Below are positions 10,368 to 11,455 of a stretch of 64,000 bases of DNA, piece after piece. Numbering within the stretch: position 1 is the stretch's first letter; each line of letters starts with the position of its first letter. The notes under the pieces were generated by a model. It saw only the letters and a program-made list of their open reading frames with translations. It was not told the DNA's origin and searched no databases. This DNA comes from Escherichia coli (lineage in GTDB: Bacteria; Pseudomonadota; Gammaproteobacteria; Enterobacterales; Enterobacteriaceae): assembly GCF_011045215.1 (NCBI RefSeq), contig NZ_CP049201.1; one strand, 5' to 3'. Both the position numbers and the translations under genes were made by a program.

Positions 10368-10796
10368 TTAGCTATTTAACGCGGGACGTTCGCTGATAGC
10401 GATACGCTGCGCTGCGATGGGTTCAGGCTCATTACGAATTAAATCAATATGCAGTAAACCGTTTACGAAGGTTGCGCCAGAGACTTCCATATTTTCAGCC
10501 AGCGTAAAGCTCAGGCTAAATGGCTGATTCATAAGCCCTTGATGCAGCCATTTTTTCTCTTCTTTTGGCTGCTCCGGCGTGCCTTTTACGCTCAGGCGCG
10601 TACCTTCCAGTTGAATCTCTAAATCTTCCTGACGGAAACCTGCCAGCGCAAGGGTAATGCGGTAGTGGTTATCGTCGCTTTTCTCAATGTTGTACGGCGG
10701 GAAGCTCTGGCTTTCACCGGCGTTTTGCAGTGCGTTGGCCAGTTTGTCAAAACCGATCCATTGACGCATCAGTGGGGATAAATCGAAGTTAGGCAT
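10368..10796 (-). CDS. ibpB: Small heat shock protein IbpB, 142 aa
   Basis: Alpha-crystallin-domain sHSP matching IbpB; start placed at MPNFDLSPL. Confidence 0.9.
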
Positions 10797-10907
10797 AGTC
10801 ATTTCTCCTTCTAAGAAGCGAGTAAGTACCTGCAAATCCGAAGATTCGCATATGCTCCCTGACGGCGAGCATGGAGATGTCAGGCCGCGCCAGGCGGCCT
10901 TAGGGAA

Positions 10908-11321
10908 TTAGTTGATTTCGATACGGCGCGGTTTTTTCGCTTCCGGAATCACGCGTTCGAGATCGATATACAGCAAACCATTTACCAGGTTAGCGCCACG
11001 AACATGAATGTTCTCAGCTAACTGGAATTTGCGTTCAAAGTTGCGTTCAGCGATGCCCTGGTACAGATAGGTGCGCTCTTTTTGTTCGTCGGCGTGAGCA
11101 CCTTTCACCACCAGCAGATTATCCTGGGCGGTAATTTCCAGTTCGCTCTCAGCAAAACCAGCCACAGCGATAGCAATGCGGTAATGGTTTTCGTCTACCA
11201 GTTCAACGTTATACGGAGGGTAGCCGCCATTACTCTGGCTCTGGTTGTTTTCTAAGTGGTTAAACAAACGGTCAAATCCAATAGCAGAACGGTAAAGCGG
11301 GGATAAATCAAAGTTACGCAT
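10908..11321 (-). CDS. ibpA: Small heat shock protein IbpA, 137 aa
   Basis: [20 protein letters not shown]... matches IbpA along its length. Confidence 0.95.
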
Positions 11322-11414
11322 AATCAATAGCTCCTGAAATCAGCGAGAATGTAAGACCTTCCACAATGGACAGGTCAGGTAGCCAGAACACCCATCAGGC
11401 GCGTCCTCATCGGC

Positions 11415-11455
11415 TACGATGTAAAAATGGGTCTGGAAATGAACTTTTCAAGCCT
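11415..11455 (-). promoter_or_regulatory. Putative sigma32 heat-shock promoter of ibpAB
   Basis: Minus strand reads cTTGAAAa, a ~14-nt spacer, then CCCATTTT, close to the sigma32 -35/-10 consensus; a ~95-nt 5'UTR follows before the ibpA start. Confidence 0.5.

Follow-up and report, generated by a model that had tools for sequence, protein, structure and literature searches.

The ibpA-ibpB operon and its neighbourhood

In the 64 kb window (the whole stretch of Escherichia coli DNA analysed here), the minus strand carries, in this order, a -35 box CTTGAAAA, a -10 box CCCATTTT, an untranslated leader, ibpA, a 111-nt spacer, ibpB and a terminator. The segment is the chromosomal ibpA-ibpB small heat-shock operon of E. 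coli. The alpha-crystallin domain is present in both proteins, PF00011 scoring 85.6 bits in IbpA and 79.4 bits in IbpB against a cut-off of 20.8. The terminator scan reported none between ibpA and ibpB. The genes and the operon terminator are listed below.

10908..11321, minus strand: ibpA coding sequence, 137 amino acids, ATG at 11321 (translation; Pfam HSP20, E = 2.7e-24; RefSeq annotation)
10368..10796, minus strand: ibpB coding sequence, 142 amino acids, ATG at 10796 (translation; Pfam HSP20, E = 2.3e-22; RefSeq annotation)
10332..10352, minus strand: intrinsic terminator of the ibpAB operon, a 9-bp G+C-rich stem followed by a T-run (terminator scan)

A 1.3-kb query covering the whole unit was matched in 5419 of 5426 complete E. 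coli genomes. The unit was always single-copy and always chromosomal in the matched genomes, and the RefSeq annotation beneath the matches in identical genomes names ibpA, ibpB and a ROSE element. Alignment with K-12 MG1655 (MG1655 coordinate = window position + 3,856,101) gave seven differing positions in 1421 aligned bases. The promoter, the ibpA leader and the intergenic leader contain none of the seven and are 100% identical to MG1655; the neighbours yidE, yidQ and yidR are the same as in K-12. Codon 2 of ibpB is CCT (Pro) here and CGT (Arg) in K-12, with C replacing G at 10792. The resulting IbpB Arg2Pro is a rare allele; CCT occurs in three sequences of the species alignment.

The comparative set consisted of 80 loci from different Enterobacteriaceae species, with IbpA 91-100% identical to the query. 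Together with the window they form alignments of 81 sequences. In all 80 fetched loci ibpB sits downstream of ibpA.

A sigma32-type promoter precedes ibpA

Direct reading of the sequence ahead of the ibpA leader identified two boxes of the sigma32 type.

11445..11452, minus strand: sigma32-type -35 box CTTGAAAA (direct sequence reading)
11424..11431, minus strand: sigma32-type -10 box CCCATTTT (direct sequence reading)

The sequence-only reading had placed a sigma32-type promoter here, written as TTGAAAA-N14 ahead of the -10 box. The boxes are as it described them and the spacing is off by one: TTGAAAA lies at 11451-11445 and 13 nt separate it from CCCATTTT, while counting from the hexamer TTGAAA gives the 14 nt (TTGAAA-N14-CCCAT). 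The -10 box reads ACCCATTT, with ACCCATTT/CCCATTTT at 11432-11424, 14 nt after TTGAAA. The sigma32 consensus for this element is CCCCATNT. With one mismatch (it is one C short), ACCCATTT is counted as a CCCCATNT-type box, and its spacing falls within 13-15 nt. The pattern TTGAAA-N13-15-CCCATNT occurs once on the two strands of the 64 kb, against 0.06 occurrences expected from shuffles, and a sigma70 promoter scan of 10100-11700 gave no match.

When the regions ahead of ibpA were aligned for the 81 sequences, conservation was 90% or higher in CTTGAAA and in the A/T-rich end of the -10 box. CTTGAAA or CTTGATA was recovered by regular expression in 72 of the 81 Enterobacteriaceae sequences, and most of the failures have the same -35 box with a variant -10 box instead. 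The 14-nt distance between the boxes was found in 71 of 81 by a strict expression; most of the other sequences carry -10 variants in the same register, those at this position in other species being CACAT, CTCAT and CCTAT. The sequence of the spacer is free to vary. Conserved boxes held at a fixed distance across a freely varying spacer form the pattern of a functional promoter. The proposed promoter thus holds up, its motifs being at the place given for them, unique in the window and conserved across species, and RpoH-dependent transcription has been established for the identical K-12 sequence.

A transcript starting at about 11417, which is 7 nt past the -10 box and the first base of a conserved hairpin (hairpin I below), would have a 96-nt leader. 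If the published 'G71', whose deletion abolishes thermosensing, is the bulged G at 11344, the start would lie at 11414 and the leader would be 93 nt long, an uncertainty of 3 nt. The earlier estimate of ~95 nt agrees with this range.

The ibpA leader has the architecture of a ROSE-type RNA thermometer

The 99-nt ibpA leader folded into three hairpins at -34.1 kcal/mol, with z = -2.76 relative to shuffles. The third contains the Shine-Dalgarno sequence, and a full-length match to an Rfam family covers the second and the third.

11322..11417, minus strand: ibpA 5' untranslated leader, its start inferred from the -10 distance and the first base of hairpin I; 11414 is possible
11379..11417, minus strand: hairpin I, stable; in the lowest-energy fold at 20-50 °C and in the RNAalifold structure
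11355..11376, minus strand: hairpin II, stable; 94% paired, within the ROSE_2 match
11325..11351, minus strand: hairpin III, thermosensor; core CUC-G-CUG/AUUU/CAG-GAG at 11347-11331
11315..11387, minus strand: match to Rfam ROSE_2 (RF01832), 100.4 bits against a gathering score of 65, E = 3.6e-23, model positions 1-73, full-length

In hairpin III, the Shine-Dalgarno AGGAG (11335-11331) lies within the stem opposite UCGCU, with a bulged G at 11344, and the hairpin fits the ROSE_2 consensus structure. The hallmark of ROSE elements is a U(U/C)GCU sequence that pairs imperfectly with the Shine-Dalgarno in the 3'-proximal hairpin (PMC3669281); the ibpA leader has this pairing together with the bulged G. 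ROSE elements further comprise two to four hairpins ahead of a small heat-shock gene, in its 5' UTR, and the ibpA leader has three, two of them covarying, with an HSP20 gene downstream. The same architecture, termed SL1-SL3, is used for the ibpA leader in work on IbpA autoregulation.

The three-hairpin structure was supported across species. In the alignment 87.6% of the cells are paired, compared with 31-51% when the 3' partner columns were slid by 1-3 positions. Covariation reached 0.232, against 0.141 ± 0.005 in shuffles, and none of 500 shuffles attained it. RNAalifold recovered the same hairpins when the structure was not supplied. In 80 sequences the inner helix of hairpin I is 92% paired, and compensatory changes affect seven of its nine pairs; one pair of hairpin II, for instance, is AU in 35 sequences but GC in 34 others. 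Such strong covariation indicates that the stable upstream hairpins have been selected as structures, and they are thought to help the sensor hairpin fold or to shield the mRNA. In hairpin III the core hardly varies among the 80 species and is 99.8% paired. By its sequence and conserved pairing, the ibpA leader is thus classed as a predicted ROSE-type RNA thermometer.

The ibpB leader is ROSE-like and lies in a structured intergenic region

The 111-nt spacer between ibpA and ibpB was predicted to fold into four hairpins (z = -2.63).

10882..10900, minus strand: intergenic hairpin 1, G+C-rich, directly past the ibpA stop codon, without a U-run
10852..10872, minus strand: intergenic hairpin 2, AUGCUC-G-CC/GUCA/GG-GAGCAU
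10831..10850, minus strand: intergenic hairpin 3, variable, absent in about a quarter of species
10805..10822, minus strand: ROSE-like hairpin 4 of the ibpB leader, CUC-G-CUUC/UUA/GAAG-GAG, with Shine-Dalgarno AGGAG at 10809-10805 and bulged G at 10819

This four-hairpin model is 94.3% paired in the alignment, compared with 42-53% when slid, and its covariation of 0.211 (0.112 in shuffled alignments) was reached by 0 of 500 shuffles. The same four hairpins were returned by RNAalifold with no structure supplied. Hairpin 1, which the terminator scan did not report as a terminator, is 92% paired with compensatory changes at five of six pairs. Where it is present, hairpin 3 is 87% paired, and all eight of its pairs show compensatory changes. 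Hairpin 4 is 100% paired in 80 distinct sequences and was recovered by RNAalifold; in the conserved block ACUCGCUUC-NNN-GAAGGAGA of the 81-sequence alignment, only the three loop bases vary. The Shine-Dalgarno hairpins of both leaders are invariant and so display conservation and no covariation.

Like the ibpA leader, the ibpB leader has the U(U/C)GCU/Shine-Dalgarno pairing with a bulged G. The pattern CTCGCT-N4-9-AGGAG occurs at exactly two sites in the 64 kb, before ibpA and before ibpB, with 0.11 expected. In the 2.4-kb Rfam scan the ibpB leader had no match, and no family reached its gathering score; the best score, 18.8 bits to ROSE_3 against the 43 required, appeared only when the 136-nt region was searched alone. 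On these grounds the ibpB leader is ROSE-like in design, but its score does not place it in a curated family.

Folding of the strain's own allele with ViennaRNA gave a different lowest-energy structure for the ibpB leader, an extended hairpin that also buries the AUG. Across species, pairing in the helices of this extended hairpin amounts to 63-86%, and one base pair is confined to the three CCT-carrying sequences. We regard hairpin 4 as the probable fold and the extended hairpin as one that is apparently not conserved. Two further candidates were set aside. A 20-codon upstream reading frame, running from an ATG at 10850 just past the GGGAG of hairpin 2 to a TAA that overlaps the ibpB start, seemed to point to translational coupling; most of the 80 species lack it or have it in another frame or at another length. 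An alternative ibpB start at ATG 10802 (MTMPNF...) lies merely 2 nt past GGAG and is missing in most species.

Hairpin 2 also has the ROSE shape, in which an anti-Shine-Dalgarno-like CUCGCC with a bulged G faces a Shine-Dalgarno-like GGGAG. It is stable (-11.6 kcal/mol at 30 °C) and 96% paired, with an invariant core and covarying outer pairs, one of which is UA in 51 sequences and GC in 25. It is conserved as strongly as the real Shine-Dalgarno hairpin and hides no ribosome-binding site of a conserved reading frame. No description of a role for it was found in a literature search that did not extend to Gaubig et al. 2011 and Waldminghaus et al. 2009. Hairpin 2 might have a specific role, for instance as an IbpA-recognition element for ibpB or as a determinant of RNase E processing, and Arg2Pro might retune the ibpB leader through the added pair that hides the start codon; we consider this combination speculative and rather unlikely.

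Temperature-dependent folding discriminates weakly

Both leaders were folded at 20-50 °C, and the results at 30 and 42 °C were compared. The sequence-only reading had named a Shine-Dalgarno region left unpaired at low temperature as the observation that would speak against thermometers; in the lowest-energy folds of both leaders at 20-30 °C, the Shine-Dalgarno lies in a stem. Opening the five Shine-Dalgarno bases of the ibpA leader cost 2.79 kcal/mol at 30 °C and only slightly less, 2.36 kcal/mol, at 42 °C, corresponding to an increase in open probability from 0.010 to 0.023 (~2.3-fold). Isolated hairpin III had -4.0 kcal/mol at 30 °C and -2.1 kcal/mol at 42 °C, and it remained in the lowest-energy fold at 42-50 °C. 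For ibpB, the opening energy of the Shine-Dalgarno was 6.8 kcal/mol at 30 °C and 5.3 kcal/mol at 42 °C.

When the sequence upstream of the ibpA Shine-Dalgarno was shuffled and the Shine-Dalgarno itself kept, 90% of the controls occluded it at least as well as the native leader and 84% showed a temperature effect at least as large. The native ibpB values were in the upper tail of their shuffled controls and not extreme (11.5% and 8%). Because the ibpA Shine-Dalgarno is hidden as well or better in the shuffled controls, the temperature folds barely discriminate. Similarly, the predicted melting of ibpA and rpoH was reported not to differ significantly from that of ordinary mRNAs (PMC2896394). 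Single-sequence folding was therefore discarded as proof of a thermometer, the hairpin persisting at 50 °C and the shuffles being equal or better; its outcome counts as non-refutation only, and the 30-versus-42 °C folding test alone can neither confirm nor refute a thermometer. In silico deletion of the bulged G raised the opening energy from 2.8 to 9.4 kcal/mol in ibpA; in ibpB the energy after deletion was 10.6 kcal/mol. Deletion of the bulged G is reported to abolish thermosensing, and the modelled effect matches that loss.

It is identity to K-12, the Rfam match and the cross-species comparison that carry the case for thermometers; the temperature folds do not. Alignment with a characterised thermometer, which had been suggested as a check, found the ibpA leader identical to that of K-12 and scoring as ROSE_2, and the suggestion that the leaders are thermoresponsive and hide their ribosome-binding sites gains support from the same three sources. 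Temperature-dependent melting and release of translation have been shown experimentally for the identical ibpA sequence. For the ibpB leader, temperature-dependent translation, influenced by IbpA, has been reported.

Multilayer control of the operon and alternative explanations

We assign a probability of about 95% to the explanation that the segment is the ibpA-ibpB operon with its known multilayer control, composed of a sigma32 promoter, two ROSE-type leaders and IbpA feedback. As published work on K-12 would have it, RpoH would transcribe a two-gene ibpAB mRNA upon heat. At low temperature the weak Shine-Dalgarno hairpins would mask the ribosome-binding sites, and their gradual opening on warming would permit initiation. 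IbpA oligomers would bind both leaders and repress translation of ibpA and ibpB, and titration of IbpA into protein aggregates would lift this repression.

The leaders could instead serve mainly as a platform for IbpA binding, acting in autorepression and mRNA decay as sensors of aggregation with little direct melting. IbpA is published to repress through the leaders of both ibpA and ibpB, mutations in all three stem-loops disturb this repression, and the thermometer has been described as 'leaky' at 37 °C. The in silico weakness of the ibpA Shine-Dalgarno hairpin, no more occluding than in the shuffled controls, points the same way, as do hairpins I and II and intergenic hairpin 2, whose conservation goes far beyond what hiding a Shine-Dalgarno needs. 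However, for the E. coli ibpA leader and its relatives, temperature-dependent probing has been reported, and so has temperature-dependent induction of reporters under a heat-independent promoter; in many species ROSE elements work as thermometers, reduced two-hairpin forms included; and melting and IbpA repression are described in the literature as joint and not as alternative. We therefore regard a mainly IbpA-binding function of the leaders as unlikely and retain the multilayer explanation, in which both act.

Another explanation concerns the transcription of ibpB, a substantial part of which could arise from a sigma54 promoter inside ibpA, making the intergenic region an independent leader.

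10972..10987, minus strand: sigma54-like TGGTAAATGGTTTGCT, a published but disputed sigma54 promoter of ibpB; match with three mismatches in the 3' part of ibpA

The exact published sequence is present in the window. It was listed as a sigma54-dependent ibpB promoter and was ChIP-positive under sigma54 overexpression (PMC2831329), whereas genome-wide sigma54 ChIP-seq found only background signal at the ibpB site and called it misannotated (PMC4591121). Tested against a TGGCAC-N5-TTGCA-type element, TGGTAAATGGTTTGCT was a match of chance-frequency quality, with 178 matches as good in the window and 205 expected. Its -12 TTGC is CTGC in most other species, and conservation of its GG/GC core is explained by the conserved Leu-Val and Leu-Leu codons that it overlaps. 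Moreover, ibpA and ibpB have no separating terminator, and no convincing sigma54 promoter was found in the ibpA-ibpB intergenic region. Substantial separate transcription of ibpB is in our estimation decidedly unlikely, and the sigma54 site in ibpA is probably minor. Finally, the idea that the promoter-like and hairpin-like features are chance resemblances without a regulatory role draws its sole support from the weak discrimination of single-sequence folding and is extremely improbable given match counts far above chance, the Rfam E-value, and conservation and covariation over 80 species.

IbpA repression via the leaders and the disputed sigma54 promoter are later-found layers that the sequence-only reading lacked.

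Relation to known systems

The literature already covers the operon with its sigma32 promoter, the thermometers in both leaders and the feedback by IbpA; the ibpA element is a curated Rfam family and is annotated in RefSeq. A real regulatory unit had been recognised correctly from raw sequence. Added here is a comparison of 80 species that supports the ROSE-like fold of the ibpB leader, a leader not captured by Rfam.

The closest system is the ROSE-like ibpA thermometer of E. coli K-12 (ROSE_2, RF01832), reportedly described by Waldminghaus et al. 2009. The sequences are identical from the promoter through the start codon, and there is no difference between them; the window carries the K-12 element in a different strain of E. 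coli. The thermometer in the ibpA-ibpB intergenic region, in the ibpB leader, is said to be that of Gaubig et al. 2011. The intergenic sequence is identical to K-12, with the CUCGCU...GGAG core directly before ibpB, but with C in place of G at 10792 the 3' end of the leader is predicted to adopt a different lowest-energy fold.

The ROSE-like thermometers of Pseudomonas ibpA (PMC3669281) have the same U(U/C)GCU pairing in the 3'-proximal hairpin and a G+C-rich stable hairpin upstream. Their leaders contain two hairpins in ~62 nt, whereas the E. coli ibpA leader contains three in ~95 nt, and, unlike the Pseudomonas ibpA thermometers, the E. coli operon carries a second copy of the design before the paralogue ibpB. 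Other E. coli sigma32 (RpoH) promoters share the CTTGAAA -35 box and a CCCAT-containing -10 box 14 nt apart, and here too a chaperone operon is driven; the -10 box of the ibpAB promoter is ACCCATTT, compared with the consensus CCCCATNT.

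A second hairpin and other features of the ibpA-ibpB spacer

The ibpA-ibpB spacer contains, upstream of the ROSE-like hairpin that holds the ibpB Shine-Dalgarno sequence, another hairpin of closely similar design, together with a short open reading frame starting just downstream of it.

10852-10872, minus strand: intergenic hairpin 2, AUGCUC-G-CC/GUCA/GG-GAGCAU
10788-10850, minus strand: 20-codon open reading frame, with its ATG 3 nt past the GGGAG of hairpin 2 and its TAA overlapping ibpB codons 2-3

Hairpin 2 has the same build as a ROSE Shine-Dalgarno hairpin: its CUCGCC resembles an anti-Shine-Dalgarno sequence, its GGGAG resembles a Shine-Dalgarno sequence, and it contains a bulged G. 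Comparison across 80 species revealed an invariant core flanked by covarying outer pairs. No description of a role for hairpin 2 was found in a literature search, which did not cover the primary paper. The 20-codon open reading frame is probably not a gene, because most of the 80 related species lack it or have it in another frame or at another length.

At ibpB codon 2 (10791-10793, minus strand), the window reads CCT (Pro) versus CGT (Arg) in K-12. The exact 61 nt around this codon are present in just 54 of 5417 E. coli genomes; CCT also occurs in the Escherichia albertii reference (L003), and CGT was found in 78 other species. When the leader was folded with ViennaRNA, in silico only, the C of the CCT codon gave one more pair between AGGUA and UGCCU, and because of this extra pair the predicted ibpB leader fold would move to a form that hides the AUG.

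Candidate promoter and small RNA signals

10972-10987, minus strand, within ibpA: sigma54-like TGGTAAATGGTTTGCT, matching the published ibpB sigma54 promoter sequence
10325-10396, minus strand: several weak matches to unrelated Rfam small-RNA families, among them anti-hemB, Hrs1, PrrF, ncS54 and suhB

TGGTAAATGGTTTGCT has been reported as the ibpB sigma54 promoter (PMC2831329), which was contested by a later ChIP-seq study (PMC4591121); in the window, sequence support for the site is at chance level. The Rfam matches are all stacked on the ibpB terminator hairpin and lie far under threshold; they represent generic terminator matches rather than small RNAs.

Spacer insertions in other species

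Between hairpins 3 and 4, the ibpA-ibpB spacer carries insertions of about 25-130 nt in several species (loci L008, L009, L049 and L047/L064/L065/L069/L074/L076/L078/L080 of the compared set). One insertion family, CAACTGCGCACAAAA...AACTGTGCC, is common to the Enterobacter/Lelliottia group, and a second, CCCTAAACAATTCG..., is common to two Citrobacter and one Phytobacter. The longest insertion, about 130 nt, is found in Citrobacter sp. Awk 4.
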